Source: a bacterium
Lineage (GTDB): Bacteria; Planctomycetota; B15-G4
DNA: 64,000 nt
Direction: 5' to 3'
Assembly: GCA_030428785.1 (NCBI GenBank)
Contig: JAUIEF010000001.1
Location: 18,105-82,104 of the forward strand
Positions 14,637-63,914 of the stretch are shown one piece after another. The position numbers and the translations under genes are program-made. Within the stretch, counting starts at the first letter, position 1; each line of letters begins with the position of its first letter. Under the pieces are notes generated by a model. It ran no database searches and was not told where the DNA came from. It saw nothing but the letters and a program-made list of their open reading frames with translations.

Positions 14637-15002
14637 CTACGGCACGTCCGCGCGCACGCCGTTCGAGAGCGTGATGCCGCCCGGCACGCTCGCGTCGGCC
14701 ACCGCGCACTGCACGGTGAGCGAGGTGCCCGACGGCACGCCGGTCGGCCAGGGCGTCGCGGCGGTGAACGCGCCGTCGCCGTCCGCGACGAACGCGAGCT
14801 GGTTCACGGCCGGCCACGCGTGCACCGTGCCGCCCAGCGCGGCGAAGGGCGTCGGCGCGACGGCGATCCACGCGACGAGCGGCGCGGCGGGCGGCGCGTT
14901 GCCGAGCGCGAGCGTCGTCGTCGTGCCGGCGACGAGCGGCCCGGCGCCCGCGAGCGTCACCGGTCCGTGCGCGCCGGTCGTCCCGCCGCCGAGGTCCGTC
15001 CA
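14637..15002 (-). other. Shared C-terminal module, instance A (esterase)
   Basis: WTDLGGGTTGAHGPVTLAGAGPLVAGTTTTLALGNAPPAAPLVAWIAVAPTPFAALGGTVHAWPAVNQLAFVADGDGAFTAATPWPTGVPSGTSLTVQCAVADASVPGGITLSNGVRADVP-stop. Confidence 0.8.
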
Positions 15003-16658
15003 GCCGAGCCCCCGCACGAACTCCGCGAGGTGCCGCCCGAACTCGAGCGCGCCCTTCGTGCCGAGCGTCGGCGACCCCGCGGGGTACGGCAGCGCGTCCG
15101 TGTCGACGAACCACGCGCGCGGGTCGTCGTCCGCGAACGCCTGGCAGGCCGCGTCGATCGCGTCGAGGTCGGCCTTCTTCCACACGAGGCGGTCGCCGAG
15201 CTCCGCGACGATCCAGCGCAGGTCCGGCGCGCCGAGGTCCGCGCGCAACGCGTCGGCGAGCGTCGCGAGCTCCGTCGCGTAGCCGGGGTGGAACGGGTCG
15301 TGCCAGGCATCGTGCTCGCCGGGCAGCCAGACGACGGCCTCGAGGCGCGGCTCCAGCCCGCGGGCGACGAGGTCGTCGAGCGCGTCCCGCACGAACGCGA
15401 CCGCGGCGTCGTACTGCGGCAGGCTCGCGTCGTCCGGCGTCGGCATCCAGTCCTCGAGCACGGCGCCGCTGTGCGTCACCTTGACGATCGCGACCGGGTC
15501 GGCCGAGCCGTCGGCGAGCGTCCGCCCGAAGCTCAGCTCCGGCCCGAAGTTCCCGAGGTGGTCGGCGGGACCGAGCGGCGCCCAGTCCGTCGAGACGTGC
15601 GTGTCGCCGAGCCGGTAGCGGAACGCGACGTCGTGCTGCGGCGCGCGGAGCGCCTTCCACTCCGGGTGCGCGTTGATCTGCTTCGCGTGCGCGCCCTCGC
15701 CCTCCATGCTGCGCTGCCCCGCGAGCACGAAGACGCGCACCGTCGCGCCGGGCGCCGCGGGGAAGCCGGCGGCGAACGGCTTCGACACGTGCGCGACGTC
15801 GACGCCCAGCGACGCGAGGTAGGCGTCGGCGTAGGCCTCGCCGAGCTGGAGCTGCCCCTCCGTGCCGAAGTGGATGCCGGGCGCGGCCGGCGCGTCGTTC
15901 ACGAGGAAGGCGAGGTGGCTCGTCGGCACGACGTGCACGTCCGGGTCGGCGGCGGCCACGGCGAGCTGCGCGGCGCGCAGGTCGCGCATCGCCTCGCGAC
16001 GGTTGACGCCCCACACGGACTTGTCGCTCGTCGTGCCGAGGAACCACGGCAGCGACGGCTCGCCGAGGTCCGCGCGCAGACGCGCGATGAACGCGGCGAG
16101 GTTCGCGTCGTACGCGGCGAGGTGCGCGTCGACGAGCATGTCGCTCTCGCCCTGCTGCCAGAGCACGCCGCCGAACCGCCAGTCGACACCCTGCGCCGTG
16201 AGGTCGCCGAGCGCGGACTGCAGGAGCGCGAGCGTGCGGGCGTGGAGGCCGAAGCCGTCCGTGGCGCCCGGCGCCCAGTCCTCGGCGAGGCTCGAGCCGC
16301 CGCGCGTCGACTTGATGATCGCGATCGGCCCGGGCAGCACGCCCTTCACGCGGCGCGCGAAGGTGAGCTCGGGGCCGAAGACCTGCCGGTCGGGCTCGGG
16401 CTGCAGCGGGATCCAGCCGCCCGACGTGTGCGAGCCGTCGCCGGTCTCGTACCAATAGAGGACGTCCGGCTGCGGGTCCGCCGCGCCGGCCCGGCCCGGG
16501 AGCGCGTCCACCTCGGCGGCGGACGTCTCCTCGCCCTCGGCGTTCGACTGCCCCGCGACGAGGAACACGCGGGTCGGCGCCTGCGCCGCGGCGGTCCCGG
16601 CCGCCGCGCACGCGCACGCGAGTAGCAACGCGCGGACGAGGGGACGGATCCGGTGCAT
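14637..16658 (-). CDS. Secreted tandem sialate-O-acetylesterase-like (SASA/DUF303, SGNH-type) esterase with the shared C-terminal module
   Basis: Full track ORF. Signal peptide MHRIRPLVRALLLACACAAAGTAAAQA. Domain 1 has VAGQSNAEG and WQQGESD. Domain 2 has LAGQRSMEGEG and WLPGEHD. The last 121 aa form the shared module. Confidence 0.88.
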   Translation of the reverse strand: MHRIRPLVRALLLACACAAAGTAAAQAPTRVFLVAGQSNAEGEETSAAEVDALPGRAGAADPQPDVLYWYETGDGSHTSGGWIPLQPEPDRQVFGPELTFARRVKGVLPGPIAIIKSTRGGSSLAEDWAPGATDGFGLHARTLALLQSALGDLTAQGVDWRFGGVLWQQGESDMLVDAHLAAYDANLAAFIARLRADLGEPSLPWFLGTTSDKSVWGVNRREAMRDLRAAQLAVAAADPDVHVVPTSHLAFLVNDAPAAPGIHFGTEGQLQLGEAYADAYLASLGVDVAHVSKPFAAGFPAAPGATVRVFVLAGQRSMEGEGAHAKQINAHPEWKALRAPQHDVAFRYRLGDTHVSTDWAPLGPADHLGNFGPELSFGRTLADGSADPVAIVKVTHSGAVLEDWMPTPDDASLPQYDAAVAFVRDALDDLVARGLEPRLEAVVWLPGEHDAWHDPFHPGYATELATLADALRADLGAPDLRWIVAELGDRLVWKKADLDAIDAACQAFADDDPRAWFVDTDALPYPAGSPTLGTKGALEFGRHLAEFVRGLGWTDLGGGTTGAHGPVTLAGAGPLVAGTTTTLALGNAPPAAPLVAWIAVAPTPFAALGGTVHAWPAVNQLAFVADGDGAFTAATPWPTGVPSGTSLTVQCAVADASVPGGITLSNGVRADVP

Positions 16659-17742: not shown

Positions 17743-19287
17743 ATGCCGACCCGCTCCGCGCACCGCAGCCTCGCCGCGCTCGCCCTCGCGCTCCTCGCCC
17801 TCGCGCCCGCCGTCCCCGCCCAGGACGACGGCGACATGCCCGCCAAGGGCGACGGCGGCACGAAGGACGACGCCACGATCGAGATCCCGCGCGACGAGGC
17901 CGTCACCACCGAGGACACGGTGACGATCGGCGGCGTCGAGGTGCCCTACCGCGTGACCGTCGGCACGCAACCGGTGTGGGACGCCGACAACGAGCCCGTC
18001 GCGTCGATGTTCTACACGTACTACGAGCGCAGCGACGTCGAGGACCGCGCCACGCGCCCGCTCACCGTGAGCTTCAACGGCGGACCCGGCTCGGCGTCGC
18101 TCTGGATGCACATCGCGTACACCGGGCCGCGCCTGCTCGAGATCGACGACGAGGGCTACCCCGTGCAGCCCTACGGCATCCGCGACAACCCGCACTCCAT
18201 CCTCGACGTCACGGACATCCTCTACGTCGACCCGGTGAATACGGGCTTCTCGCGCATCCTCGACGACGCGGACCGCTCGCAGTTCTTCGGCGTCAACGAG
18301 GACGTCGACTACCTGGCGCGCTGGCTCGACACCTTCGTGACGCGGCAGGGCCGCTGGACGAGCCCCAAGTTCCTCATCGGCGAGTCGTACGGGACGACGC
18401 GCGTGTCCGGCCTCGCGCACCGCCTGCAGAACTCGCAGTGGATGTTCCTCAACGGCGTCGTGCTCGTCTCGCCCACCGGGCTGGGCATCGACCGCGACGG
18501 GCCCGTCGGCGACGCGCTGCCGCTCCCTTATTACACGGCGACGGCGTGGTACCACGAGCGCCTCGCGCCCGACCTCCAGTCGCGCGACCTCGACGACCTG
18601 CTCCCCGAGGCCGAGGCCTTCACCGTCGACGAGCTCATCCCCGCGCTCGCGCAGGGCGGCGCGCTGTCCGCCGAGCGCCGCGAGGAGGTCGAGCTGGCCT
18701 ACGCGCGCTGGTCGGGCCTGCGCCTGCCCGTCGTGCAGCAGTACGACATGGCCGTGCCGACGCAGTTCTTCTGGAAGGAGCTGCTCCGCGACGAGGGCCT
18801 CACCGTCGGCCGCCTCGACTCGCGCTACCGCGGCTTCGACCGCAGCGACTCGGGGACGTCGCCCGACTTCGACCCCGCGCTCTCGAGCTGGAACCACGCG
18901 TTCGCGCCGGCGATCAACCACTACCTGCGCGACGTGCTCGGCTACGAGACGGACCTCCAGTACTGGGTCTTCGGCCCGGTGCACCCGTGGAACCGCGACG
19001 GCGACCGCACGGGCCGGCAACTCCAGCAGGCGATGGGCGAGAACCCGTACCTCCACGTCCTGGTGCAGTCCGGGTACTACGACGGCGGCACGGACTACTT
19101 CAACGCGAAGTACACCATGTGGAACATGGACCCCGCGGGCCGCTTCCAGGACCGCATGTCGTTCAAGGGCTACCGCTCCGGCCACATGATGTACCTGCGC
19201 GCCGAGGACCTCGCCGCCGCGAACGACGACATCCGCGCGTTCATCGGCGAAGCGATCCCCGCGCCGGGGACGCCGGCGCGGCGATAG
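17743..19287 (+). CDS. Secreted serine carboxypeptidase, S10 family
   Basis: Track ORF 17473..19287 trimmed to ATG 17743 (MPTRSAHRSLAALALALLALAPAVPAQ). FNGGPGSAS, nucleophile motif GESYGT, and a C-terminal GHMMY. Confidence 0.88.
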   Translation: MPTRSAHRSLAALALALLALAPAVPAQDDGDMPAKGDGGTKDDATIEIPRDEAVTTEDTVTIGGVEVPYRVTVGTQPVWDADNEPVASMFYTYYERSDVEDRATRPLTVSFNGGPGSASLWMHIAYTGPRLLEIDDEGYPVQPYGIRDNPHSILDVTDILYVDPVNTGFSRILDDADRSQFFGVNEDVDYLARWLDTFVTRQGRWTSPKFLIGESYGTTRVSGLAHRLQNSQWMFLNGVVLVSPTGLGIDRDGPVGDALPLPYYTATAWYHERLAPDLQSRDLDDLLPEAEAFTVDELIPALAQGGALSAERREEVELAYARWSGLRLPVVQQYDMAVPTQFFWKELLRDEGLTVGRLDSRYRGFDRSDSGTSPDFDPALSSWNHAFAPAINHYLRDVLGYETDLQYWVFGPVHPWNRDGDRTGRQLQQAMGENPYLHVLVQSGYYDGGTDYFNAKYTMWNMDPAGRFQDRMSFKGYRSGHMMYLRAEDLAAANDDIRAFIGEAIPAPGTPARR

Positions 19288-19414: not shown

Positions 19415-20302
19415 GTGACCCCGCTGCTCTCCCTGCTGCTCTGCGTCTCGTTGTCCGGCGCGCTCGTCCACGACGGGCTCGACGAGCGGCTTCACGACAT
19501 CGCGCACCGGCTCGAGGAGTCCGGCCCGCGCGCCGACCTCTACCTGCGGCGCGCCGACGTGCTCCGACGGCTCGGCCGCCACGAGGAGGCGTTCGCCGAC
19601 CTGCTGCGTGCCGGGGAGCTCGATCCGGACGTCCCCGGCCTCGGGCTCGCGCGCGGCCGCCTGTGCGTCGACGTCGGCTGGTGGGGCGCCGCCGAGGGCG
19701 CGCTCGAGACGCACCGCGCGCGCGAGGGCGACGGACACGAGGTCTCGTCGCTGCTCGCCGACGCGGCGCTCGGCGCCGGGCGTCGCGCGGACGCCGTCGC
19801 GCACCGACGCCGGGCGCTCGCCCTGCACGACGCGCCGCCGCCGGACCTCTTCGTACAGCTCGCGCGGGAGGTGCGCGCGGCCGCCGCGGACGCGGAGACG
19901 GGGCGCGCCGAGGCCCTCGCCGTGCTCGAGGAGGGCCTCGCGCGGCTCGGCGCGCTCGCGTCGCTCGTCCTCCCCGCCGTCGAGCTCGACCGCGAGGCGG
20001 GCCGCTGGGACGACGCGCTCGAGCGGCTGCGGGCGCTCGTCGACGCCTCGCCGCGCGCCGAGCGCTGGCTCGCGCTGCGCGGCGACGTCCTCGCCGAGGC
20101 GGGTCGGCCCGACGAGGCGCGCGTGGCCTGGCTCGCGGCGCGCGACGCCCTCGATACGCTGCCCGCGCATCGCCGCTCGACCCCGCTGCTGCGCGAGCTC
20201 GATGCGCACCTCGTCCGCGCGCTGGCGGCATCGCCCGTGGACACCGAGGGCACCCCGACCGACGACCCGTCCCCCGCCGAGCCCCCCGAGGAGCAGCCGT
20301 GA
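19415..20302 (+). CDS. TPR-like helical repeat protein with a signal-like N-terminus
   Basis: Full track ORF with a GTG start. MTPLLSLLLCVSLSGALVH, then A/L/R/E/D-rich helical repeats (ADLYLRRADVLRRLGRHEEAFADLLRAGELDP...). The stop overlaps GTG 20299 of the next gene's frame. Confidence 0.7.
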   Translation: MTPLLSLLLCVSLSGALVHDGLDERLHDIAHRLEESGPRADLYLRRADVLRRLGRHEEAFADLLRAGELDPDVPGLGLARGRLCVDVGWWGAAEGALETHRAREGDGHEVSSLLADAALGAGRRADAVAHRRRALALHDAPPPDLFVQLAREVRAAAADAETGRAEALAVLEEGLARLGALASLVLPAVELDREAGRWDDALERLRALVDASPRAERWLALRGDVLAEAGRPDEARVAWLAARDALDTLPAHRRSTPLLRELDAHLVRALAASPVDTEGTPTDDPSPAEPPEEQP

Positions 20303-20328
20303 CCCACGGACCCACCGCGCGCCGCGCC

Positions 20329-22479
20329 ATGACACGCCGCGTCACCGCCGCCGTCTCCCTGCTCGCCGTCGTCGCGTGGCTGCCGCCCGCGGCCGCCGCG
20401 ACGGACGTCCTCGTCCCGCGCGGCTCGACCTGGCGCTACCTCGACGACGGCAGCGCCCCCGTCGGCTGGCAGCTCCCCGGCTTCGACGACTCCACCTGGG
20501 CGTCCGGACCCGCGCAGCTCGGCTACGGCGACGGGGACGAGGCGACCATCCTCTCCTACGGCCCGGATCCCGACGACAAGCACATCACGGCGTACTTCCG
20601 GCACGAGTTCACGGTCGTCGACCCGGCGGCGTGGACGAAGCTCCGGCTGCGCGTGCTGCGCGACGACGGCGCCGTGGTCTCCGTGAACGGCGTCGAGGTC
20701 CTGCGCACGAACATGCCGGCGGGCGCGATCACGTCGACCACCCTCGCGACCGCCGCCCAGAGCGGGTCGGAGGAGGACCTCTTCCGGCTCCTGAACCTGT
20801 CGCCGACGGCGCTCGTGCCGGGGACGAACCTCGTCGCCGTGGAGGTGCACCAGAGCAGCGGCACGAGCTCCGACACGAGCTTCGACCTCGAGCTCCACGC
20901 GACGGACACGGAGTTCGTGGTCCGCGGCCCGTACCTCCAGCTGGGCACGTCGGACAGCGTGACGATCCGCTGGAACACCGACGCCGCGACCGACTCGGTG
21001 GTGCGCTACGGGACGTCGCCGGGCGCGCTCACGAGCGTCGCCTCCGACCCGGCGACCGGCCTCAGCCACACGCTCCAGCTCACGAACCTGACGCCCGACA
21101 CGCAGTACTGGTACGCCGTCGGCACGTCGTCGTACGACCTCTCCGGACCGGACGCCTCCCACACCTTCCGGACCGCGCCCCTGGTCGGGACGTCGCAGCC
21201 CGTGCGCATCTGGGCCATCGGCGACTCCGGCACCGCCGACTCGTTGGCCGTCGCCGTGCGCGACGCGTACGAGGCGTTCACCGCCGGCACGCCCACGGAC
21301 GTCTGGCTCATGCTGGGCGACAACGCGTACACCGACGGCACCGTCGCCGAGTACGTCGCGGCGGTGTACGACACCTACCCGGAGATGCTGCGCCGCACGG
21401 TCGTCTGGCCGACGCGCGGCAACCACGACACGACGGGCGCGTACACGGGGCTGTTCAACCTGCCGTCCGGCGGCGAGGCGGGCGGCCTCCCGTCGGGCAC
21501 GGAGCTCTACTACTCGTTCGACCACGCCAACGTGCACTTCGTGTGCCTGGACTCGGAGAGCTCGCCGCTCGGCGTCGGCGGCGCCATGTGGACGTGGCTC
21601 GAGGCGGACCTCGCGTCGACGGCGCAGGACTGGATCATCGCCTACTGGCACCACCCGCCGTACACGAAGGGCTCGCACGACTCCGACACGGAGTCGAAGC
21701 TCGTGAGCATGCGGCAGGCGTTCCTCCCGCTGCTCGAGGCGGGCGGCGTGGACCTCGTGCTCAACGGCCACAGCCACAGCTACGAGCGCACGTTCCTCCT
21801 CGACGGGCACTACCAGTCGTCGACGACGTTCTTGGACAGCATGAAGAAGGACCCCGGCGACGGCGCACCCGCGGGCGACGGCGCGTACGCGAAGGCGTTC
21901 GGCGCGAACAACGGCGCGGTGTACGCCGTCGCGGGGAGCTCGGGCAAGCTCTCGGACGGGCCGCTCGACCACCCGGCGATGGCGCTCTCGACGATGACGC
22001 TCGGCTCGCTCGTGATCGACGTCGACGGCCTGCAGCTCCGCGCGCGGTTCCTCGACGACACAGGCGGGGTGCTCGACGACTTCACGCTCGTGAAGGGCGA
22101 CTTCGCCGAGTGGGACGTGCTCGGCGGAGGGACGCCCGGCGTGCAGGGCGTGCCGCAGCTCGTCGGGGTCGGCACGCAGGTCGCCGGCTCGCCGCTCACC
22201 GTGCACCTCACGCGTGCGGCGCCGGGCGCGCTCGCGTACGTGTTCCTCTCCGGCACGTCGACGCCCACGCCGTTCCTCGGCGGCACGCTCCACGCGTTCC
22301 CGTTCCTGAACTCCTTCGCGTTCGTCACGGACGGGAGCGGGTCCTACGCCGCCTCGGCGACCTGGCCGGCGGGCGTCCCGAGCGGGCTCCAGGCCTGGCT
22401 GCAGGCGGGCGTCGTGGACGCGAGCGTGCCCGTCTTCGGCGCCTCGCTGTCGAACGCGGTCCGGAGCACGGCGCCCTGA
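20329..22479 (+). CDS. Secreted purple-acid-phosphatase-like metallophosphoesterase with the shared C-terminal module
   Basis: In the frame of track ORF 19663..22479. ATG 20329 gives MTRRVTAAVSLLAVVAWLPPAAAA; GTG 20299, which overlaps the upstream stop, is an alternative start. Motifs IWAIGDSG, LMLGDNAYTDG, PTRGNHD and NGHSHSYER. An Fn3-like PAP N-domain is present (VTIRWNTD...TQYWYAV). Confidence 0.88.
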   Translation: MTRRVTAAVSLLAVVAWLPPAAAATDVLVPRGSTWRYLDDGSAPVGWQLPGFDDSTWASGPAQLGYGDGDEATILSYGPDPDDKHITAYFRHEFTVVDPAAWTKLRLRVLRDDGAVVSVNGVEVLRTNMPAGAITSTTLATAAQSGSEEDLFRLLNLSPTALVPGTNLVAVEVHQSSGTSSDTSFDLELHATDTEFVVRGPYLQLGTSDSVTIRWNTDAATDSVVRYGTSPGALTSVASDPATGLSHTLQLTNLTPDTQYWYAVGTSSYDLSGPDASHTFRTAPLVGTSQPVRIWAIGDSGTADSLAVAVRDAYEAFTAGTPTDVWLMLGDNAYTDGTVAEYVAAVYDTYPEMLRRTVVWPTRGNHDTTGAYTGLFNLPSGGEAGGLPSGTELYYSFDHANVHFVCLDSESSPLGVGGAMWTWLEADLASTAQDWIIAYWHHPPYTKGSHDSDTESKLVSMRQAFLPLLEAGGVDLVLNGHSHSYERTFLLDGHYQSSTTFLDSMKKDPGDGAPAGDGAYAKAFGANNGAVYAVAGSSGKLSDGPLDHPAMALSTMTLGSLVIDVDGLQLRARFLDDTGGVLDDFTLVKGDFAEWDVLGGGTPGVQGVPQLVGVGTQVAGSPLTVHLTRAAPGALAYVFLSGTSTPTPFLGGTLHAFPFLNSFAFVTDGSGSYAASATWPAGVPSGLQAWLQAGVVDASVPVFGASLSNAVRSTAP
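22111..22479 (+). other. Shared C-terminal module, instance B (phosphatase)
   Basis: WDVLGGGTPGVQGVPQLVGVGTQVAGSPLTVHLTRAAPGALAYVFLSGTSTPTPFLGGTLHAFPFLNSFAFVTDGSGSYAASATWPAGVPSGLQAWLQAGVVDASVPVFGASLSNAVRSTAP-stop. Confidence 0.8.
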
Positions 22480-35873: not shown

Positions 35874-37100
35874 ATGTCAGCATGGAAGAGATCCGTCGCG
35901 ACCACACTGGCCGGACTGAGCCTCGCGGCGTACGCCGCGGCGGGCGGTTCGAACGAGGCGCAGGAGAGCCTCCTCGCCGCGCGGGCCGCGGCGGCCCCCG
36001 ACGCGTTCCAGGAGACGGTCGACGTCCCGTCCTCGGGACCGGTGCTCGTGAACACGGGCGAGGTGAAGTCGTGGACCTTCGAGGGCCACGTCCTCACCGT
36101 CGGCGCCCAGGAGGGCGGCGGCGGAGGCATCCTCTACGCTCCGTCCGAGGCGGACGACCCGGCCTACCGCGCGGCGATCTCCGCCGCGGCGGGCGGCGCG
36201 ACGGTCGACTACTTCGACGCGCGCGCGTCGACGCCGAGCGTCGCGACGATGCTCCAGTACGACGCCGTCTACAGCTGGACGAACTTCGCCTACGCGGACA
36301 GCGTGACGTTCGGCGACAACCTCGCCGCGTACAACGACGCGGGCGGCACGGTGGTGCTCGGCGTGTTCTGCACGTTCACGAGCGGCAACTCCATGAGCGG
36401 GACGATCATGACGGCCGGCTACTGCCCGGTCGTGTCCCCGCTCGGCAGCAACCACTTCACGACGTCGACGTACAACGGCGGCGGCCAGACGTGCATCTAC
36501 GGCGGCGTCGCGAGCCTCTCCAGCGGCTTCCGTGACATCCTCACCGTGCAGGGCACGGGCATCGAGGACGGCTTCTACGCCGACGGCGAGATCTGCCACG
36601 CGTACCGCGGCGGGACCGGCGGCTCGCAGGGCGACGTCGTCTACAGCAACGGCTCGGGCGCCGTCCAGCTCACGTCGGCCGGTCCGTGGGGCACGGCGGT
36701 CGGCAACGCCGCGACCTGCGGCATCGACGTCTCGAGCGCGTGGGCCGACATCGGCAGCTCGCTGCCGGGCGCCGGCGGCGATCCGGTGCTCGCGGGCGTC
36801 GGGACGCTCGCGGCGGACACGACGAACTTCCTCGTCCTGTCGAACGCCGCGCCGTCCGCGCTCACGGCCGTGTTCGCGTCGACGTCCATGTCGCCGCAGC
36901 CGGTCGCGGGCGGCACGCTCGTGCCGGGGCCGACGCTCGTCGTGCGGCTCTTCACGACGTCCGCCGGCGGGACGCTCAACCTGACGTTCCGGCCGCCGGC
37001 GGGTCTCACCGGCAACCTGTACGCGCAGATGGCCGTCGACGACGCGGGCGCCGTGCAGGGCATCGCGTTCTCGAACGCGATCGAGGGCACCATCCCCTGA
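35874..37100 (+). CDS. Secreted hypothetical protein with the shared C-terminal module
   Basis: Track ORF 35790..37100 trimmed to ATG 35874, preceded by GGAGGAG. Signal MSAWKRSVATTLAGLSLAAYAAAGG. The N-domain is unrecognised. Confidence 0.8.
   Translation: MSAWKRSVATTLAGLSLAAYAAAGGSNEAQESLLAARAAAAPDAFQETVDVPSSGPVLVNTGEVKSWTFEGHVLTVGAQEGGGGGILYAPSEADDPAYRAAISAAAGGATVDYFDARASTPSVATMLQYDAVYSWTNFAYADSVTFGDNLAAYNDAGGTVVLGVFCTFTSGNSMSGTIMTAGYCPVVSPLGSNHFTTSTYNGGGQTCIYGGVASLSSGFRDILTVQGTGIEDGFYADGEICHAYRGGTGGSQGDVVYSNGSGAVQLTSAGPWGTAVGNAATCGIDVSSAWADIGSSLPGAGGDPVLAGVGTLAADTTNFLVLSNAAPSALTAVFASTSMSPQPVAGGTLVPGPTLVVRLFTTSAGGTLNLTFRPPAGLTGNLYAQMAVDDAGAVQGIAFSNAIEGTIP
36741..37100 (+). other. Shared C-terminal module, instance D
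   Basis: WADIGSSLPGAGGDPVLAGVGTLAADTTNFLVLSNAAPSALTAVFASTSMSPQPVAGGTLVPGPTLVVRLFTTSAGGTLNLTFRPPAGLTGNLYAQMAVDDAGAVQGIAFSNAIEGTIP-stop. Confidence 0.75.
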
Positions 37101-37536: not shown

Positions 37537-37693
37537 GGCGTCAGTCTACGCGCGGGGTCGGTGGCCGTGGGACCCCGAGCTCGTCGACACTCCGGCGGAG
37601 TCGGCCTGAGGGCCTCGCTCGCCGACGGGCGGCGGCGGCCCCCGTGACCGGGGAGCTCGCGTAGACTCGGGTCCTCCCGGAGGAGTGGTCCCG

Positions 37694-38965
37694 ATGCCGC
37701 ACGTCGACGCGTCCCGCACGTCCCGTCCGTCCGCCCCGTGGCCGCTCGCGGCGGCGCTCGTCGTCGCGCTGCTCGCGTCCGACGCGTCCGCGCAGCGCTC
37801 GCCGCACCGCGCGCTCCCCGCGCCGCGCCTCGACGTGACGACGACGGTCGCCCCCGAGGCGCGCGTCGTCCGTCGCGACGACCTGCGCGCCGGCGCCGGC
37901 TCGCGCCCGGTCGTCATGCTCACCGGCTACTGGCCGCCGTCGAACGAGATGATCCGGCACTTCGCGACGGACCCGTTCCAGAACCCCGGCGGCTGGGCCG
38001 GCGAGGACTGGGAGGGCCGCGGCTACGACATCAAGGCGTTCTTCCCGGAGTTCGTTCCGGGCTGCCTCACGTGTCTCCAGGGCATGGGCAAGCTCGAGGT
38101 CGACTATCAGGACACGTCGGACGACTTCTGGGCCATCGCCGACTTCGAGCGCCCCGTCGCGATCATCACGTTCAGCCGCGGCCTGAACGACATGAGCTGG
38201 GAGGTCGAGCTCAACCAGTACAACAAGGACCAGTGGGGTCCGGACTACTCCGTGCCGAAGCTCCCGACGCCCAACCCTCCCGACGCGTCCGTGCCGGTCG
38301 ACTTCCTGCGCCCGTCGAACCTGCCCATGCAGGGCATCGTGGACGCCGTCGACGCGCTGGGCTTCAACCTCGACCCGTACATCTGCATCAGCGGCGACGG
38401 CGGCGGCTTCCTCTCCGAGTTCATCGCGTACCACGGCACGTGGTACCGCGACCTGCACGACCAGCCGTCGGACCCGGCGTGGACGATCGCCGCGGGGCAC
38501 GTGCACGTCGGCGGCAAGATCCTCGTGGGCCGCGCGCGGCTCGCTGCGGAGGCGACGCTCCGCGCGGTGCTCGACCACCTCGACACGGTCATCCCGCCGG
38601 TGACCTGCCAGGCGGACCTCGGCTTCGGCGGGCCGGGCGCGAGCGCGCTCTCGCTGTGCGGCGAGCCGCTCGCGACGGGCGGCACGGCCGACCTCGTGCT
38701 CACGGGCGCGCCGCCGTCGACCACGGCCTTCCTCGTCGCGGGACTCGACGGGACGCCGACGCCCTTCGCGGGCGGGCAGCTCGTCCCGCTGCCGGCGCTC
38801 AAGGTGCTCGCGTTCCCGACGGACGCGACGGGCTCGCTCACCGTCCCGGCGATCGGCGGCGGCGGCGGTCCGGTCGCGTTCTACCTCCAGGCGGTCGTCG
38901 CCGACGGCGGCCAGCCGTTCGGCTTCGGCCTCTCGAACGCGCTCCAGGTGCAGCTCCTGCCGTAG
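37694..38965 (+). CDS. Secreted protein with a pyroglutamyl-peptidase-I-like (C15-fold) domain (tentative) and the shared C-terminal module
   Basis: Track ORF 37685..38965. ATG 37694 lies 9 nt after GGAGGAG. Signal WPLAAALVVALLASDASAQ. By-eye similarity to C15 peptidases: VMLTGYWPP / WEVE / GGGFLSEFIAYH / AGHVHVG. Confidence 0.75.
   Translation: MPHVDASRTSRPSAPWPLAAALVVALLASDASAQRSPHRALPAPRLDVTTTVAPEARVVRRDDLRAGAGSRPVVMLTGYWPPSNEMIRHFATDPFQNPGGWAGEDWEGRGYDIKAFFPEFVPGCLTCLQGMGKLEVDYQDTSDDFWAIADFERPVAIITFSRGLNDMSWEVELNQYNKDQWGPDYSVPKLPTPNPPDASVPVDFLRPSNLPMQGIVDAVDALGFNLDPYICISGDGGGFLSEFIAYHGTWYRDLHDQPSDPAWTIAAGHVHVGGKILVGRARLAAEATLRAVLDHLDTVIPPVTCQADLGFGGPGASALSLCGEPLATGGTADLVLTGAPPSTTAFLVAGLDGTPTPFAGGQLVPLPALKVLAFPTDATGSLTVPAIGGGGGPVAFYLQAVVADGGQPFGFGLSNALQVQLLP
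38606..38965 (+). other. Shared C-terminal module, instance E
   Basis: CQADLGFGGPGASALSLCGEPLATGGTADLVLTGAPPSTTAFLVAGLDGTPTPFAGGQLVPLPALKVLAFPTDATGSLTVPAIGGGGGPVAFYLQAVVADGGQPFGFGLSNALQVQLLP-stop. Confidence 0.75.
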
Positions 38966-39057: not shown

Positions 39058-40734
39058 CTACTGCACCACGAGCGTCCCCGCGTTGGACATGGTCGGAGCG
39101 AAGGCCGCGATCCTCCACTGCGCGTGGAAGGCCGAGCCCACGATCGCGGCCGGCGTCGTCGGCAGCAGGAGCGTGCCCGCGCCCGCCGCGTTCACCGTGA
39201 CCGCCGGCTGCGGCGTCGCCGTCGCGAAGTCGATCCACGTCGTGGGACCGCCGGCCGTGAGCGGCGACGTGAAGAGCACCGCGTTGGCGCCCGCCGGCGC
39301 GTTGACCACGCCGATCTTGAGCTCGCCCGTGTTGATGAGCGGCGAGTTCACGACGATGTCCGGATTCGGCAGCGCGGGCGAGGTGCCCGTGCCGTGCTCG
39401 TTCGTCGCGAAGGGCACGCGGTCCGCGTAGAGGTCCGGGTGGTCGAAGGGCGGCTTGCCGACCTCGAGCCGCGGGTCCGTGAGCGCGCGCAGGAACGCAC
39501 GGACGTCACGCAGCTGCGTCGCCGGGAGCGGCGCGCCCGCGAAGGGGAAGGCCGGCGCGCCGATCTGCGTGTTGTCGAACGCGAGCAGGTCGGGCAGCGT
39601 CTTGAGCGAGCCGTTGTGCAGGAAGTGCGTGCGCAGCGCCACGTTGCGGAGCGTCGGCGTCTTGACGTTCGTCGTCCCCGTCCCCACCGGCGGCGGCACG
39701 TTGATCGAGTGGTTGATGCCGTCGGAGAAGAGGTTGTCGAACGGGTTCGTCAGCCCGCCGCCGGCCACCTGCGTGGGGTTGCCGGTCACGGAGTGGCACC
39801 CGAAGCAACCGCTGCCCTGCATGATCGCCATGCCGTTCGCCTCGGAGGCCGTGAGCGTCCGCGTGTCGATGGGCGCCTGGTCCGGGATGAGCGTGCGCTC
39901 GTAGGTCGCGACGGAGAGCGCGAACCGCTCGCGCGTGAGGCCGATCGCGCCGCCGAACAACGGGTGCCCCGCGAACGCGATGTCCGCGAGGGAGTTGTAG
40001 TCCGGCGCGAGCCCGATGAAGCCGGCGACCGGCGCCGGGATCGTGCCGGGCGTCGCGAGCGCGAGCGGGCGCGCGGGACCGAGCCGCGCCTGGATGAGCC
40101 CCGACGGCCACGTGAGCCCGGCGTGCGACATCTCGACGCTGTTCACCGGCGGCCCGACGGCCTGCGACTCGAGCCCCGAGAACGCGGGGAACTGGTCGAT
40201 GCCGCCGAGCAGGAACGGGTTGCCGAACGCGTCCGTGAAGTTCGGACCGGCCGACTGGTTCCACAGCACCTGCGCGAAGAACGCGGCGGCGATGTTCGTC
40301 GGCACCGCGATCGGCGTGACCTGCCGGCCCATCGTCAGGCCGGGGAAGTCGGTGTACTGGTTGCCCGCGTCCTGCGGGACCATGCCGAGGCTGCCGCGCT
40401 TGCCGCCCGTCGTCGACGGGTAGGCGCCGCGCGGGTCGACACCGCCGACGGCCGGGATGTGGCACGTGCCGCACGACATCGTGCGGTCGCTCGACACCTG
40501 CTCGTCCCAGAACAGCGCCTTGCCGAGGAGCGCCTGGCGCTCCGTGGCGCTGCCGGGAAGCGGGACGAACGGCTGGCCGGCCGCGTTGACGAACGGGTTG
40601 CCGGGCGGCGTCTGGAGGCTCGGCCAGTTCTGGCCGGCGACGGCCGTGCCGATGATCTGCGCGGAGGCCGCCGGGAGCAGCGCGCACGCGAGGAGCGCGG
40701 TTGCGAGTGAACGGATGGGAACGGGGTTCTTCAT
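39058..40734 (-). CDS. Di-haem cytochrome c peroxidase (CCP/MauG family) with an extra C-terminal beta-rich region
   Basis: Track ORF 39058..40986 trimmed to ATG 40734 (MKNPVPIRSLATALLACALLPAASAQ). Haem motifs CGTCH and CFGCH. The C-terminal ~100 aa end ..MSNAGTLVVQ. Confidence 0.88.
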   Translation of the reverse strand: MKNPVPIRSLATALLACALLPAASAQIIGTAVAGQNWPSLQTPPGNPFVNAAGQPFVPLPGSATERQALLGKALFWDEQVSSDRTMSCGTCHIPAVGGVDPRGAYPSTTGGKRGSLGMVPQDAGNQYTDFPGLTMGRQVTPIAVPTNIAAAFFAQVLWNQSAGPNFTDAFGNPFLLGGIDQFPAFSGLESQAVGPPVNSVEMSHAGLTWPSGLIQARLGPARPLALATPGTIPAPVAGFIGLAPDYNSLADIAFAGHPLFGGAIGLTRERFALSVATYERTLIPDQAPIDTRTLTASEANGMAIMQGSGCFGCHSVTGNPTQVAGGGLTNPFDNLFSDGINHSINVPPPVGTGTTNVKTPTLRNVALRTHFLHNGSLKTLPDLLAFDNTQIGAPAFPFAGAPLPATQLRDVRAFLRALTDPRLEVGKPPFDHPDLYADRVPFATNEHGTGTSPALPNPDIVVNSPLINTGELKIGVVNAPAGANAVLFTSPLTAGGPTTWIDFATATPQPAVTVNAAGAGTLLLPTTPAAIVGSAFHAQWRIAAFAPTMSNAGTLVVQ

Positions 40735-47354: not shown

Positions 47355-47355
47355 G

Positions 47356-48676: not shown

Positions 48677-49372
48677 TCACGCCTCGTCGAGCATCCGCCG
48701 CGCCCAGCCCTGCTCGCGGAGCCGCGCGCGCAGGCGCTGCCAGCGCTTGACGACCGCCGCCTCGCCGAGGTCGAGCCGGCGCGCCGCCTCCGCGCAGGTG
48801 AGCCCCTCGAGGCCGCAGTGCACGAGGAGCTGCCGGTCCTCGTCGGCCAGCTCGCCGACGCGCTCCACGAACGCGCCGACCGCCTCGTCGCGACCGAGCC
48901 GCCGCGAGAGCGACGTCACGTCGTCGGGCACGTTCGCGAGCGCGAAGAGCCGCGTCGTCGGCCCGCCCTCCCCCGCCGCCCACGGCGAGCGCCGCAGCTT
49001 GCGGAAGCCCTCGAGGAGCACGTTCTTCGCGATGGTGAAGAGCCACGCGCGGAAACTGCGCGTCGCCGGGTCGAAGCGCGGGAAGGCAGTCACCGCGCGC
49101 ACCCATACTTCCTGCACGAGGTCGGCCGGGTCGACGTGCATGCGCATGGAGCGTCGGATGCGGAGCTGCGCCCAGGCGTGGAGCGCCGGCGCGACCCGCT
49201 CGTAGAGCGCGGCGAACTGCGCGGCGTCCCCGCCCTGCGCGCCCGCGGCGAGCCGCTCGGTGGGCGCGTCGAGGGGCGGCACCGGCTCCGCTCCGGACGG
49301 CGACTCCGGACCGGAGGCGGACGGCCCCCCGCCGGCGGGGAGCGGCTCGTCGCTGGACGGTCGGTCGACCAT
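48677..49372 (-). CDS. ECF-type RNA polymerase sigma-70 family factor (no adjacent anti-sigma gene)
   Basis: Last 231 codons of track ORF 48677..51385, from ATG 49372. Sigma-2 region DLVQEVWVRAVTAFPRFDPATRSFRAWLFTIAKNV. Sigma-4 region LEGLTCAEAARRLDLGEAAVVKRWQRLRARL. Confidence 0.9.
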   Translation of the reverse strand: MVDRPSSDEPLPAGGGPSASGPESPSGAEPVPPLDAPTERLAAGAQGGDAAQFAALYERVAPALHAWAQLRIRRSMRMHVDPADLVQEVWVRAVTAFPRFDPATRSFRAWLFTIAKNVLLEGFRKLRRSPWAAGEGGPTTRLFALANVPDDVTSLSRRLGRDEAVGAFVERVGELADEDRQLLVHCGLEGLTCAEAARRLDLGEAAVVKRWQRLRARLREQGWARRMLDEA

Positions 49373-49502
49373 GCTGCTCCCGCGCTCTCGGACCTCGGCC
49401 GACGCGCGACGCCCCCCGCGCCGCGACCGTTCGACGCCCCGCAGCGTCCGCCCCGTCCGCGAGACGGTCAAGCCCGGCGCACCGCCCCGGCGCCGCGACC
49501 GG

Positions 49503-49537
49503 GATTTTCCCGTCCACCGGACGGCCGTTCCGGTCAC
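49503..49537 (+). promoter_or_regulatory. Conserved promoter-like element P1 upstream of the kinase-CHAT operon (candidate ECF target promoter)
   Basis: GATTTTCCCGTCCACCGGACGGCCGTTCCGGTCAC. It is 29/35 identical, with no gaps, to 55229-55263. It ends 63 nt before GTG 49601. Confidence 0.6.
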
Positions 49538-49600
49538 CACCCCCGCGACGGCAGGCACCGCGTATCCTGTCGGACGCCGAGGCCAGGAGAGGGCCCCCCC

Positions 49601-54600: not shown

Positions 54601-55119
54601 GTGAGCGGCGACGACTTCCTGCTCCTGCTGCGCGGCCGCGCGACCGAGGCGCAGCTCCGTCGTCGCGCGACGGTGCGCGGCGCGCGCGTGCTCCACCTCG
54701 CGTGCCACGGCGCCGCCGACCCGGTGACGCCCGGCCTGTCGCGCCTCGAGCTCGGACGCGCGGGCACGGAGGACGGCCGGCTCTTCACCGACGAGCTCGC
54801 GACGCTCGACCTCTCGTGCGAGCTCCTCGTGCTCTCGGCCTGCGAGACGAACGCCGGGCCGCTCCGCGCGCTCGAGGGCGTCGACGGACTCACGCGCGCC
54901 GGGCTCGCGGCGGGCGCGCGCGCCGTGCTCTCGACGCTCTGGCGCGTGCCCGACGACGGCGCGCGGCGGCTCGTGACGTCCTTCCACGAGGCGTGGCTCG
55001 GCGAGGGGCTCCCGCGCGCGCGCGCCCTCGGCGAGGCCCGGCGCCGGGCGATCCGCGAGGGCCTGCCCGTCCGGGCGTGGGCGGCCTTCCAGCTCTGGGA
55101 CGGCGCCCCGGCGGACTGA
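51643..55119 (+). CDS. Secreted TPR repeat plus CHAT (caspase-like) domain protein
   Basis: In the frame of track ORF 49843..55119. GTG 51643 overlaps the kinase stop (GTGA). Signal (M)RPAAFVLLALLAAGAPAQD. ~900 aa of TPR-like repeats. CHAT dyad context VLHLACHGA (His codon 54706-54708) and LVLSACETN (Cys codon 54841-54843). Confidence 0.9.
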   Translation: MRPAAFVLLALLAAGAPAQDTDGALARATALQDRALALAESGRPGDAADAFLEAAPLFGEAGRDEDRAKCLHNAGALYTDAGRHEESVDAFARAQTWCARVRKASWAASSVYGRALALAALDREGEAVEAFAIAVALFEQLGDDGQLAIATHDLGASLANLRRFDESAETFLLAERRTLAIGDLAGAAMSAESAGTVLRSAERHAESAEALDRAVARRLPDDGRPVGGPGTVGGLLRERGTTLLMLNRWDDALADFEAAAPMLEAAGDASGLAWLHWHRGQTLRTLGRYEEAVAAFDASERLAAGRDPELLANLLLGRADVLVYRGRLSESLEVLEEASALVDLLAGPPGSRPRTAVPHGLLQLRGSVATRRGEVLRNLGHFGDALAELAAAEEHHRASGKRAPLAAAILDRAELLAELGRQEEALAGFDEAGRLFAELGDAEWGAHVEIGRATALRLAGEPRLALDALRRARPVVEGLGNARQVAHMDFERVILLRTLGRTGHAEELLEEIEEGFVAYGGRVAEARAALEHAALHHLAGRDEDALAEAERADLLWEAEGHLQQRVRSAAMRGDLLAGLGRDDEALDAYDVAVDGLEALLVGRTAGLGAESVTGLRAAFAEIVPPYLALAAARAADADVARAWRVVEVFQGLGAAQLVAERGRLRDDALPPDVSRTLRDARRALSEAADAVVGDAAGDDDAGRAELAERRRELARAEDDARLVARAAVVPEVASLAEVAAALGSGETLVQYAALGARVHALVVSADGARLVPIGPSEAVDAAVERVLDRLDPGRRRPAPLPAELAADLRALGRLVLDPVLAGRAPPARLVVVPSGLLCRVPFGALLTADVAPGAEQAAWPFLAAAVDTTCAHSGTTWIAMRRRADAPRDADGPAYVAFADPEDASVRSRAATLAAGAPSTHDGAPAGAPGPDAPPAPDRGPRGLASLPRTIDEVAAVARLFAGDGDAAALDALEEALLVGGAVPGVVSGDDFLLLLRGRATEAQLRRRATVRGARVLHLACHGAADPVTPGLSRLELGRAGTEDGRLFTDELATLDLSCELLVLSACETNAGPLRALEGVDGLTRAGLAAGARAVLSTLWRVPDDGARRLVTSFHEAWLGEGLPRARALGEARRRAIREGLPVRAWAAFQLWDGAPAD

Positions 55120-61163: not shown

Positions 61164-63914
61164 ATGCTCGTCGCCGCCGCGCTGCTGACCTCGCTGCTCG
61201 CCCCGTCCCCCGTGCCGCCACTGCCCGGCGATCCGGCGCCCGGACCGGCGCCCGCCGTGTCCGCCGACACCGAGGGCGGCTCGCCGACGCTCGAGGGGTC
61301 GTTCGCGCGGACGCGCGGCGTCGTGACGTCGGCCGCCGAGGCGACGGCGTTGCTCGGCGGACACGCGCCCGCGCCGGCCGGCGGCTTCGCCGGCTCCTCG
61401 GCGGGCTTCCTCACGCTCAACGACGACCCCGAGGGCGACATGCCGCGCGAGGTCATCTTCTCGGCGGACGGCCAGGAGGTGCTCGTCGTGAACCGCGACA
61501 CGGACACGCTCACGGTGTTCGCCGCGGCGAGCGGGCTCATCTCGCACACGATCGACGTCGGCGACTTCCCGGTGGACGTCGCGGTCTCGCCGGACGGCGC
61601 GTACGCGGTCGTGCCGAACGTGCTCGACGACACGGTGAGCGTCGTCGACCTGTCGTCGAAGACCGTCGCGGCGACGATCCCCGTCACGGGCAGCCAGCCG
61701 TTCGCGGTCGAGGTCACGGGCGACAGCCAGACGGCGGTGGTCGCGCTCATCAACGACGGCGTCGCGTCGGCGTTCTCCGTGATCGACCTCGGGACGCTCG
61801 CCGAGTCGCACGTGATCGCGACCGGCCCGCAGGGCGTCATCGGGTTCTTCCTCACGCCGGAGTCGGGCATCTTCGGCAACGTGTTCACGCAGTTCGCGCT
61901 GGGCGACGACGACACGGTGGCCGTGCTGCCGGACCGCGGGGCGGGGCGCGTGCGCATCTACGAGATCGCGACGGGCACGGAGCTCGCCGACCTCGCGGTG
62001 GCGGCGTCGCCGTCCTCGGTGGACGTGCACCCGGACGGCACGCGCGGCGTCGTGGGCCACGACTCGGGCGGCGTCCTCACGACGATCGACGTCGTGACCC
62101 GCTCCGTCGTGCAGAGCGTGGCGACGGGCCAGTCGATCCAGGGCCACGTCGTCCGCATCTCACCGAGCAAGCTCTACGGCATCGCGCCCATCTCGAACAA
62201 CGTGATCTTCGTGGAGCTCACGTCGGGCGCGATCAGCTCGACGGTCCCCACCGGCATCGTGGGCGACATCGAGCTGTCCTTCGACGGGCAGTACGCCTTC
62301 GTGAGCAACTTCAACAGCAGCGTCATCGACGTCGCGACGCAGAGCCTCGTGGACGTCGTGAGCGTCGCGCCGACCGCGGAGGCGGCGGCGAGCCCCGTCG
62401 CGCACCGCGTGGTCGGGCTCAACAACCGCTTCCGCGAGGACGTGCACCTCTACACGCTGAACGGCGCGGCGAGCACGCTCGACGCGGTCGTGCTGTCCGG
62501 TGAGCCGGCCGAGGGCGACGCGCCGCGCACGGTGGCCGTGTCGGGTGACGGGCGGCTCGCGGTCGTCACGAACAACACCTCGCGCAACGTGTCGGTCGTG
62601 GACCTCGTCGCGGGGAGCGTGCGCGCGTGGATCGACACGGGCGACCGGCCGCTCGGCGTCGCCGTGTCGGGCGACGGCCGCACCGCGGTCGTGTGCAACG
62701 GCGACCAGGACACGGTGTCCATCATCGACCTCGAGACGGACACGCTCGTCCGCACGCTCGTCGTGCCGTCGCGTCCGGGCGAGGTGCTCATCTCGCCGGA
62801 CAGCTCGACGGCCTACGTGACGAGCATCGCGGGCACGGACCGCGTGCGGCGCATCGCGCTCAACGGCGCGGCGAGCACGATCACGGGCTCGATCGTCACC
62901 GGACAGATGGGCTCGGTCATCGCGACCTACAACACGCTGAGCGGCATGGCGCTCTCGCCGGACGGCTCGCTGCTCGCGGTCTGCGTGAGCTTCGACGACG
63001 TCGTGCGGCTCATCGACACGGCGAGCTTCACGGTCGTCGCGACGGTGCCGGTGGGCGACTTCCCGCTCAAGACCGTGTTCCAGGCGGACGGCGCCAAGCT
63101 CTGGGTCGGCAACGCGTTCGGCGACTCGGTGAGCGTCGTGCAGGTCGCCGGCGCGGGCTCGTCGGTGGTCGCGACGATCCCGAACATCGACTTCCCGCTC
63201 GTCATGCTCGCGGACCCGGACGGCGACGACGTGTACGTCGGCAACTTCGGGACGACGCCCCGGCTCTACGTGCTCGACACGGCGACGAACGGCGTCGCGA
63301 CGACGGTGAGCCTGCCGGCCTTCGCGCGCGGCGGCGCGGTGTCGGCGACGGGCGACGGCGTCGTGCTCGCGACGGTCGCCGGGCCGTTCGTGCACGTCGA
63401 CACGTCGGGCGCGTTCCCGTCGATCGCGTCGCAGACGCCGCTCTCGGGCGACCCGCCGGACCTCGCGTGGAGCGACCGCCTGCACCGCGCGGTCGTCACG
63501 CAGCCCGGGCCGCTGGACGGCGTGGACCTCGTCGACGTGCCGACGCCCTGGACGGACGTGGGCGGCGAGACGCTCGGGGCGAACGGTCGCCCGACGCTGC
63601 TCGGCGGCGGCACGCTCGTGGGCGGGACGCCGGCCTCGCTCGCGCTGCGCAATGCCCCGCCCGGCGCGCTCATGGTCGCGTGGGTCGCGCTCGCGCCGAC
63701 GCCCGCGGCCTTCTTCGGCGGCGTCGTGCACACGCTCCCGTTCAACAGCCAGTTCCTCTTCTTCGCCGACGCGGACGGCCGCTTCGCGGTGACGACGACC
63801 TGGCCCGCGGGCATCCCGACGAACACGAACGCCTGGTTCCAGTTCCTCGTGCAGGACCCGTCGGTGATCTTCGGGATCACGCTCTCGAACGCGCTGCGGG
63901 CGACGACGCCGTGA
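61164..63914 (+). CDS. Secreted double YVTN-type beta-propeller protein with the shared C-terminal module
   Basis: In the frame of track ORF 60627..63914, from ATG 61164. Many repeats of the type VAVSPDGAYAVVPN..DDTVSVVDL, VAVSGDGRLAVVTNN.SRNVSVVDL and VAVSGDGRTAVVCNGDQDTVSIIDL. Confidence 0.88.
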   Translation: MLVAAALLTSLLAPSPVPPLPGDPAPGPAPAVSADTEGGSPTLEGSFARTRGVVTSAAEATALLGGHAPAPAGGFAGSSAGFLTLNDDPEGDMPREVIFSADGQEVLVVNRDTDTLTVFAAASGLISHTIDVGDFPVDVAVSPDGAYAVVPNVLDDTVSVVDLSSKTVAATIPVTGSQPFAVEVTGDSQTAVVALINDGVASAFSVIDLGTLAESHVIATGPQGVIGFFLTPESGIFGNVFTQFALGDDDTVAVLPDRGAGRVRIYEIATGTELADLAVAASPSSVDVHPDGTRGVVGHDSGGVLTTIDVVTRSVVQSVATGQSIQGHVVRISPSKLYGIAPISNNVIFVELTSGAISSTVPTGIVGDIELSFDGQYAFVSNFNSSVIDVATQSLVDVVSVAPTAEAAASPVAHRVVGLNNRFREDVHLYTLNGAASTLDAVVLSGEPAEGDAPRTVAVSGDGRLAVVTNNTSRNVSVVDLVAGSVRAWIDTGDRPLGVAVSGDGRTAVVCNGDQDTVSIIDLETDTLVRTLVVPSRPGEVLISPDSSTAYVTSIAGTDRVRRIALNGAASTITGSIVTGQMGSVIATYNTLSGMALSPDGSLLAVCVSFDDVVRLIDTASFTVVATVPVGDFPLKTVFQADGAKLWVGNAFGDSVSVVQVAGAGSSVVATIPNIDFPLVMLADPDGDDVYVGNFGTTPRLYVLDTATNGVATTVSLPAFARGGAVSATGDGVVLATVAGPFVHVDTSGAFPSIASQTPLSGDPPDLAWSDRLHRAVVTQPGPLDGVDLVDVPTPWTDVGGETLGANGRPTLLGGGTLVGGTPASLALRNAPPGALMVAWVALAPTPAAFFGGVVHTLPFNSQFLFFADADGRFAVTTTWPAGIPTNTNAWFQFLVQDPSVIFGITLSNALRATTP
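63549..63914 (+). other. Shared C-terminal module, instance C (YVTN protein)
   Basis: WTDVGGETLGANGRPTLLGGGTLVGGTPASLALRNAPPGALMVAWVALAPTPAAFFGGVVHTLPFNSQFLFFADADGRFAVTTTWPAGIPTNTNAWFQFLVQDPSVIFGITLSNALRATTP-stop. Confidence 0.8.

Follow-up and report, generated by a model that had tools for sequence, protein, structure and literature searches.

Why should five otherwise unrelated exported proteins end in the same stretch of about 120 residues, each with proline as its very last residue? This question is raised by a 64,000-nucleotide piece of a Planctomycetota genome (contig JAUIEF010000001.1), referred to here in its whole length as the window. A preliminary description of this DNA had pointed to a C-terminal module shared by five genes and had read it as a sorting or anchoring tag, or as a common binding module. 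We find that the module represents a large, lineage-restricted and apparently undescribed family in uncultured, high-GC Planctomycetota, and structure prediction makes us very confident that it is an autonomous all-beta sandwich domain of about 120 residues. As to its role, we tentatively prefer a domain that stays on its carriers and docks them at the cell envelope.

Results

One module at the end of five unrelated proteins

Alignment of the translations shows that the five C-terminal segments, 119–122 amino acids (aa) long, are homologous. They share 33–55% identity with the first copy, gaps are limited to one or two residues, and 21 columns are invariant, with all the motifs that had been listed in the preliminary description present. 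A profile hidden Markov model (HMM) of the five copies, run against the six-frame translation of the window, matched those five only. An HMM built exclusively from metagenomic members recovered the same five copies with the E values given in Table 1, and its best further match in the window had an E value of 0.39. That proline is the very last residue in all five also holds at the DNA level, where CCG or CCC is followed directly by TGA or TAG in each copy (5/5).

Once the module is removed, the carriers show no mutual similarity (best E 0.18), in line with the earlier view that one module sits on different folds: a SASA esterase, a purple-acid phosphatase, YVTN/lactonase propellers and two proteins of no known family. 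All have the signal-peptide-like N-termini that had been ascribed to them, and their coding frames have a third-position G+C content (GC3) of 0.93–0.99. The label 'C15-like', previously attached to the carrier at 37685–38965, could not be verified, as this protein has no match in Pfam, NCBIfam or PDB. About 24 of the roughly 46 genes in the window encode signal- or anchor-bearing proteins, and the module is found on 5 of these 24 or so (Fisher p 0.03).

The five copies are only 60–68% identical to each other in DNA sequence, and for every one of them the closest copy comes from another genome and not from the window. Recent duplication or gene conversion is ruled out by these two observations and, judged from the same sequence comparisons, the window copies are old. 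The fourth copy, for example, belongs to a subtype with a cysteine pair (CQADLG..SLCG) and is 64% identical to a copy in a locus (L001) from a Planctomycetota metagenome-assembled genome (MAG).

The start of the phosphatase gene g13 was revised to 20299, which is the more likely position because a separate TPR gene occupies 19415–20302. The TPR gene and the phosphatase-module gene downstream of it (19415–22479, plus strand) overlap by 4 bases, and the pair is conserved in a 1.88-Mb metagenomic contig (L039:7044-10363) with 38% and 53% identity, respectively. The phosphatase encoded there is a full-length ortholog of g13, module included, with 53% identity over 702 aa. The start of the propeller gene g44 is uncertain, since its open reading frame (ORF) is open from 60627; 61164 is favoured as the more likely start.

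Table 1. Module copies in the window, the genes that carry them and a probable degenerate relative. Positions are those of the window; E values are those obtained with the HMM built from metagenomic members only.
Feature	Position	Strand	Description	E value
Module copy 1	14637..15002	-	121 aa + stop, ends ..LSNGVRADVP-TAG	3.3e-43
Carrier g09	14637..16658	-	673 aa: signal peptide, 2 x SASA (sialate O-acetylesterase-type), module
Module copy 2	22111..22479	+	122 aa + stop, ends ..LSNAVRSTAP-TGA	3.1e-40
Carrier g13	20299..22479	+	726 aa: signal peptide, Pur_ac_phosph_N, Metallophos, module
Module copy 3	36741..37100	+	119 aa + stop, ends ..FSNAIEGTIP-TGA	8.1e-32
Carrier g27	35874..37100	+	408 aa: signal-peptide-like N-terminus, ~290 aa without Pfam/NCBIfam/PDB match, module
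Module copy 4	38606..38965	+	119 aa + stop, ends ..LSNALQVQLLP-TAG	1.1e-21
Carrier g29	37685..38965	+	426 aa: signal peptide, ~300 aa without Pfam/NCBIfam/PDB match, module
Module copy 5	63549..63914	+	121 aa + stop, ends ..LSNALRATTP-TGA	1.7e-46
Carrier g44	61164..63914	+	hydrophobic N-terminus, YVTN/lactonase-type propellers (double beta-propeller), module
Probable degenerate relative	39073..39363	-	tail of di-haem cytochrome c peroxidase g30 (39058-40758), ends ..MSNAGTLVVQ

A large family kept at the C-terminus

The module is abundant in metagenomes. A word-indexed search returned 24 metagenomic proteins, each of which carries the module at its C-terminus, and an exhaustive HMMER scan with a 26-sequence profile against 1.84 billion cluster representatives (50% identity clusters) matched 7,216 of them at E<=1e-3, 4,683 at E<=1e-10 and 821 at E<=1e-30. 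Counts of members at the sequence level draw on the best 150 of these roughly 7,000. The end of the module is the last residue of the protein in 157 of the 165 family proteins with sequences, and no protein among the 165 carries two copies. The same position is seen in genomic context: across 39 fetched loci (362 kb, 57–75% G+C), 42 of 48 complete copies end at the stop codon. Copies are also dense along the DNA, with five in the 64-kb window and two to four in several loci of 20 kb. All four loci taken from the GTDB species collection carry the label of a Planctomycetota MAG; the pattern used to search the genome collection covered one subtype only, and the phyletic range is thus a lower bound.

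Carriers of the module are diverse, of types common at the cell surface, and mostly exported. A crude rule assigned signal peptides to 77 of 107 longer family members, the remainder including many obvious misses and truncated gene calls, and the crude test combined with inspection places signal peptides on approximately 72–80% of full-length members. Propellers dominate among the carrier folds (FG-GAP, Kelch, SBBP, NHL, SGL), and further families include Peptidase_C25, CHRD and VWA. No Pfam family is common to all 91 full-length members, and there is no glycoside hydrolase among the 25 Pfam families listed for the carriers. Two proteins, P0017 and P0004, consist of a signal peptide and the module and nothing else. 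A protein with PAS domains and the module, encoded without a signal peptide on a 1.4-kb contig (P0025), may be an assembly chimera, and 3 of the 91 members match the Pfam family DUF6087 (best E 1e-9).

The position is nearly fixed, with a clear exception. In two proteins orthologous to each other (L031:9728-10897 and L032:75-1148, both plus strand), the module lies at the N-terminus, right after the signal peptide (E 1e-36), and is followed by a 180-aa cysteine-rich domain that ends in ..ETFCAPCP and has no Pfam match. These internal copies retain the proline, reading ..LVP (..LVP|PASF) or ..FAP before the chain continues. To judge from this architecture, the module can function away from a free C-terminus, though selection keeps about 95% of copies terminal and without a tail.

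A predicted autonomous beta-sandwich with conserved polar positions

Structure prediction followed by a Foldseek search, the check that the preliminary description had proposed, gave a confident sandwich with generic immunoglobulin (Ig)-like neighbours only. The AlphaFold2 model of copy 5, computed with a 26-sequence alignment, has 11 beta-strands, a predicted local distance difference test (pLDDT) score of 97.1 and a predicted template modelling (pTM) score of 0.88. Foldseek found no match at E<1e-3 in PDB or BFVD. The neighbours it lists are generic sandwiches of the Ig-like or FN3-like kind, and they reach query template modelling (TM) scores of at most 0.53 in PDB and 0.55 among viral models; the best of them, at TM 0.43–0.55, are GH2, PmoD, adhesin and phage Ig-like domains.

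The view that the module corresponds to no named domain or sorting signal was borne out by hmmscan of the five copies against Pfam-A and NCBIfam 20.0, which at E<=10 returned nothing but two chance matches to unrelated enzymes. The best match in a profile search of PDB sequences had an E value of 0.24, and no description of such a C-terminal domain was found in the literature. A paper on Nostoc/planctomycete ice-binding proteins concerns PEP-CTERM only.

W1 and the Gly and Pro residues at turns are among the most conserved, and the final 24 residues stand out most, with approximately 2.4 bits per column compared with 2.0 for the first 24. Q98, D103, S113, N114 and P121 are conserved at 98–100%. 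Gly, Ala, Thr, Ser, Leu and Pro are abundant in the module, and charged residues (Asp, Glu, Lys, Arg, His) make up 6.9% of it compared with 17.1% of the upstream parts of the carriers. Two subtypes have cysteine pairs that co-vary, such that 13 of the 16 sequences with a cysteine at either main column have both, which indicates disulfides and an extracytoplasmic location. Together with the low charge and the signal peptides on most carriers, these pairs argue that the module is extracytoplasmic. The distance from the final strand of the domain before it to the start of the module is 3–6 residues, and neither a linker nor a conserved cleavage motif was found upstream of it.

Candidate divergent copies

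Four further segments of the window had been put forward as possible relatives, and we searched for divergent copies with HMMs built from 5, 26, approximately 170 and iterated sets of sequences, in addition to hhalign. The best supported is the tail of the cytochrome c peroxidase g30, for which the earlier suggestion gains moderate support. It lacks the WTDLG first strand, D103 and the terminal proline; taken alone, it scores below threshold against the module HMMs (E 0.37), and a homolog search with this tail on its own found nothing. In a peroxidase from another locus that is 33% identical to g30 (L016:1804-3591, minus strand), the tail does match the module HMM (E 8.6e-4), and the two tails aligned together reach an hhalign probability of 75.7% against the family (P 2.4e-5, 92 columns). 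The g30 tail is, on this sequence evidence, a probable degenerate relative of the module.

The other three, namely the tails of the M12B protease and of the gene at 27501 and a segment of an FG-GAP protein, were not detected (HMM E >=0.2, hhalign probability <=1.5%). For the M12B tail (10183–10506) the E value was 0.21, and a search for homologs was empty, so that no profile was possible; like the M12B tail, the 27501 tail shows a loose pattern by eye with no statistical support. The FG-GAP segment (4012–4329 of a gene at 2710–4707, minus strand), approximately 106 aa that immediately follow the signal peptide, looks by eye like a shortened module (..GYVSDRLSNPATVP), and its hhalign probability is 0.7%. 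This supposed internal copy, from which a binding domain had been argued, has no statistical support. The inference that had been drawn from it, a binding domain rather than a strict C-terminal signal, is nonetheless saved by the clear N-terminal copies in L031 and L032.

The terminal proline

The terminal proline persists when more homologs are considered, as it is found in 152 of the 165 family proteins and in 43 of the 48 copies in the fetched loci. In E. coli, a C-terminal proline reportedly slows translation termination (Hayes, Bose and Sauer 2002), and its near-invariance in the module therefore points to selection. That the proline is kept in the N-terminal modules of L031 and L032 indicates that it belongs to the fold. 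It may close the last strand of the sandwich, and a chain that ends exactly at this residue would probably have an unfrayed C-terminus resistant to carboxypeptidases.

A proline ending is also seen outside the module. In the window, 7 of 41 non-module proteins end in proline (p 0.019), and in the window and loci L001–L039 taken together the count is 28 of 252, or 11% compared with the 6.9% predicted by proline frequency (p 0.009). Examples are the M12B protease (..QVFGLP), a beta-helix protein at 979–2709 (..ADEFIP) and the FG-GAP protein at 2710–4707 (..VFSRP). An S10 serine carboxypeptidase with a signal peptide is encoded at 17743–19287 (plus strand), between two module genes, and this secreted enzyme may bear on why exported proteins end in proline. 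The window also encodes an exported protein with thioredoxin-like and PDZ domains (25032–26363, minus strand). PDZ domains bind C-termini; nothing ties this PDZ protein to the module.

Discussion

A retained docking domain as the tentative reading

The data describe an autonomous, non-catalytic domain outside the cytoplasm, with its conserved features gathered toward the C-terminal end. The extreme C-terminal position, the single copy per protein and the many types of carrier are together more easily squared with a module for targeting or anchoring than with a binding domain of the ordinary kind spread by shuffling, as far as the sequences of the family can tell. Of the two roles proposed in the preliminary description, targeting or anchoring therefore agrees with the family-wide pattern, and what does not carry over is the internal FG-GAP copy. 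Within this range we tentatively prefer a domain that docks its carriers at the envelope by binding one shared partner and is retained on them, a reading that we hold to be possible and short of probable. A carrier would be exported by the Sec route through its N-terminal signal peptide, the module would fold in the oxidising extracytoplasmic compartment, and a putative conserved, nearly uncharged surface would then bind one common envelope partner. This surface may be centred on the last three strands, with the aromatic residue at 96, Q98, D103, S113-N114 and P121, and candidate partners are a glycan at the surface, an outer-membrane protein or a shuttle protein. Diverse enzymes and propeller proteins would in this way be held at, or delivered to, one shared place. 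Binding, the partner that is bound, the final location of the carriers and the lack of cleavage are what we infer.

Retention is favoured, on indirect grounds, because there is no linker or cleavage motif, because proteins made of a signal peptide and the module alone exist, and because of the N-terminal architecture. A carbohydrate-binding module (CBM) that recognises a substrate is disfavoured by the spectrum of carriers. Two points weigh against docking. A position so close to absolutely C-terminal, with no tail at all, is more than a docking domain needs and matches what is expected of an export signal, and clustering of the neighbours of module genes in the 39 loci (approximately 360 kb) revealed no partner gene that recurs beside them. 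This clustering returned histidine kinases, sulfatases and local synteny only.

Alternative explanations

The alternative that survives best is a cleavable outer-membrane export signal, similar to the C-terminal domain (CTD) in type IX secretion systems (T9SS). A dedicated translocon or sortase would recognise the module in the periplasm, including its free C-terminus and the proline, and would remove it at the surface. The C-terminal, single-copy and tail-less state of about 95% of members would follow naturally, as would the very diverse Sec-dependent carriers and the many copies in one genome region. The conservation peak in the last 24 residues parallels the T9SS signal, which resides in the last 22 residues of the CTD and is lost on truncation (PMC4804311). 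Small proteins made of a CTD alone, such as PorA, are known in the T9SS (PMC7712824), and the proteins made of a signal peptide and the module are compatible with this reading too. However, the T9SS CTD models do not match the module in sequence, no CTD of the RgpB type is among the top 50 Foldseek hits, the module has 11 strands in 120 aa where the T9SS CTD has 7, and no flexible linker precedes it. Furthermore, the N-terminal copies with a domain after them retain all motifs, neither the window nor the loci yielded a gene for the machinery, and the T9SS is described as limited to Bacteroidota (PMC5445135, PMC11611037). We consider a cleavable signal of this kind rather unlikely.

A related proposal, which we rate as unlikely, is that a lineage of uncultured Planctomycetota possesses a still undiscovered outer-membrane system for export or attachment, specific to it, and that the module, as the tag on the cargo of this system, is a functional analogue of the T9SS CTD with an independent origin. 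If this were true, recognition would depend on the last strands together with the free prolyl C-terminus, and each genome would encode hundreds of cargo proteins. A Pfam survey of almost all window genes found no genes for such machinery.

The module could also be CBM-like and bring an enzyme to its substrate by binding an environmental polymer, for example an algal polysaccharide. A beta-sandwich of about 120 aa with very low charge, rich in Gly, Ala, Thr and Ser, with a conserved Trp/Phe in addition to Gln, Asp and Asn, would suit this role, a SASA-type esterase is among the carriers, and N-terminal placement is possible. Yet the carriers are mostly propeller or adhesin-like proteins, a phosphatase and peptidases instead of glycoside hydrolases or lyases. 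The lack of tandem copies and of PT-rich linkers and the near-fixed position are all unusual for CBMs; no Pfam CBM family or PDB sequence is matched, and the Foldseek matches are generic (TM at most 0.53 in PDB and 0.55 among viral models). Substrate binding is quite unlikely on these grounds.

Lower still stands a passive, protease-resistant end-cap that would have no specific partner and would protect against C-terminal degradation or aid folding. Such a cap would agree with a proline that is a fold element, being kept in the internal modules, with the excess of C-terminal proline in other proteins, with the secreted S10 carboxypeptidase encoded nearby and with the tight junction to the preceding domain. 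It leaves unexplained why thousands of divergent copies keep the polar residues Q98, D103, S113 and N114 at 98–100% conservation, as well as the restriction of the module to a subset of exported proteins and the existence of proteins composed of a signal peptide and the module only, and we regard it as very unlikely. Finally, an artefact of extreme G+C or of ORFs read in the wrong frame, suggested by the 67–78% G+C of the window, its long ORFs in all six frames and the abundance of Gly, Ala, Leu and Pro in the module, has virtually no chance of being correct and is refuted by the recovery of exactly five window copies at E 1e-21 to 1e-46 with the HMM built from metagenomic members, by the GC3 of the coding frames, by members in loci of 57–75% G+C, by the AlphaFold2 model (pLDDT 97) and by the module-bearing full-length ortholog in L039.

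Other features of the window

Several features lie outside the module genes. A regulatory cluster at 48677–55119 comprises an extracytoplasmic function (ECF) sigma factor of the PF07638 type, a Ser/Thr protein kinase and a 1158-aa protein with TPR and CHAT domains and a signal peptide. The window has matches to PF07638 and PF07602, which are Pfam families built from Rhodopirellula. A split 2-oxoacid:ferredoxin oxidoreductase operon (11129–14496, minus strand) encodes POR_N, POR and TPP_enzyme_C+Fer4 proteins together with a ParA/CbiA-like ATPase, and distant POR genes (29–31% identity) are found near module genes in L005:14243-17238. A pair of genes for an ArsR/HTH_20-type regulator and a TPR protein (29788–31292, plus strand) is 69% and 55% identical to L004:7099-8536 from the Planctomycetota MAG CBDFJQ01, and a paralogous ArsR/HTH_20-type regulator is encoded at 46779–47327 (minus strand). 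The conserved pair and the two Rhodopirellula families make a high-GC Planctomycetota genome the probable source of the window. G+C and GC3 are lower at 1–4800 and 32900–34700 (0.67–0.70, compared with 0.73–0.78 elsewhere), and the latter stretch encodes two signal-peptide proteins without a family match, at 32993–33763 (ending in ..GTTCNC) and 33777–34634. RNA genes were looked for in the window and none were found.

Significance

Planctomycetota export very large sets of enzymes and adhesin-like proteins, and how these reach their proper place in the envelope is poorly understood; we know of no equivalent in this phylum of the T9SS cargo domain of Bacteroidota. The module offers a computational handle on thousands of exported proteins and defines a candidate surface proteome or exoproteome of uncultured lineages. 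A domain-family model for it would improve the annotation of many metagenomic proteins now called 'hypothetical'.

Comparison with known systems

The T9SS CTD (Por_Secre_tail, type A/B) of Bacteroidota is an Ig-like, seven-stranded C-terminal beta-sandwich (PMC4804311), and several likenesses are apparent. Both are autonomous C-terminal sandwiches, the module by its predicted fold, on Sec-dependent proteins with diverse catalytic or adhesive folds, both occur once per protein and many times per genome, and both are most strongly conserved in the last strands. The pairing of an N-terminal signal peptide with a position at the extreme C-terminus that marks T9SS cargo is found in this family as well (157 of 165 proteins, 42 of 48 locus copies). 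Unlike the CTD, the module occurs in Planctomycetota MAGs, packs 11 strands into about 120 aa, ends in a near-invariant proline, follows the preceding domain without a linker and is in rare cases N-terminal. There is no sequence similarity between the two: hmmscan of the five copies at E<=10 gave no match to TIGR04183/PF18962 or TIGR04131. No gingipain or other T9SS CTD entry is among the top 50 Foldseek hits in PDB, and genes for SprA/Sov, PorV, PorU or PorK-N were found in neither the window nor the loci.

With PEP-CTERM/exosortase, GlyGly-CTERM/rhombosortase and LPXTG/sortase (PMC1569441, PMC3237569), the module shares a many-to-one scheme in which numerous unrelated proteins with signal peptides bear a C-terminal tag confined to a given lineage. 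Those signals are approximately 25–35 residues long, with a short motif ahead of a hydrophobic transmembrane helix and, at the C-terminus, a basic cluster, whereas the module is a folded, soluble domain of 120 residues with about 7% charged residues. Neither a hydrophobic helix nor an Arg/Lys cluster was detected at its end, where the model is all-beta; charged residues amount to 6–8% of the copies, and NCBIfam gave no match.

Among folded domains, two kinds come closer in form. The PPC domain (PF04151) is a C-terminal beta-sandwich extension of secreted hydrolases and as such resembles the module in both fold class and location. The module differs in that it has no Pfam match (PF04151 is not matched by the five copies at E<=10), in its far broader range of carriers and in its near-invariant terminal proline, and there is no evidence of its cleavage. 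Non-covalent surface anchors of the CBM or Ig-like (E-set) kind are likewise folded modules able to hold enzymes on a polymer or envelope, and they share the Ig-like topology. Neither in sequence nor in structure does the module match them significantly, there is no Pfam match to CBM_2, Big, fn3, PKD, CARDB and others, and unlike such anchors it is never in tandem and almost never non-terminal.

Exported proteins that end in a beta-sandwich are, as a general kind, familiar. What is new here is a large family absent from Pfam-A and NCBIfam, which is set apart by its 11 strands, its near-uncharged composition, its near-invariant prolyl terminus and the direct junction, without a linker, to the protein that it ends.

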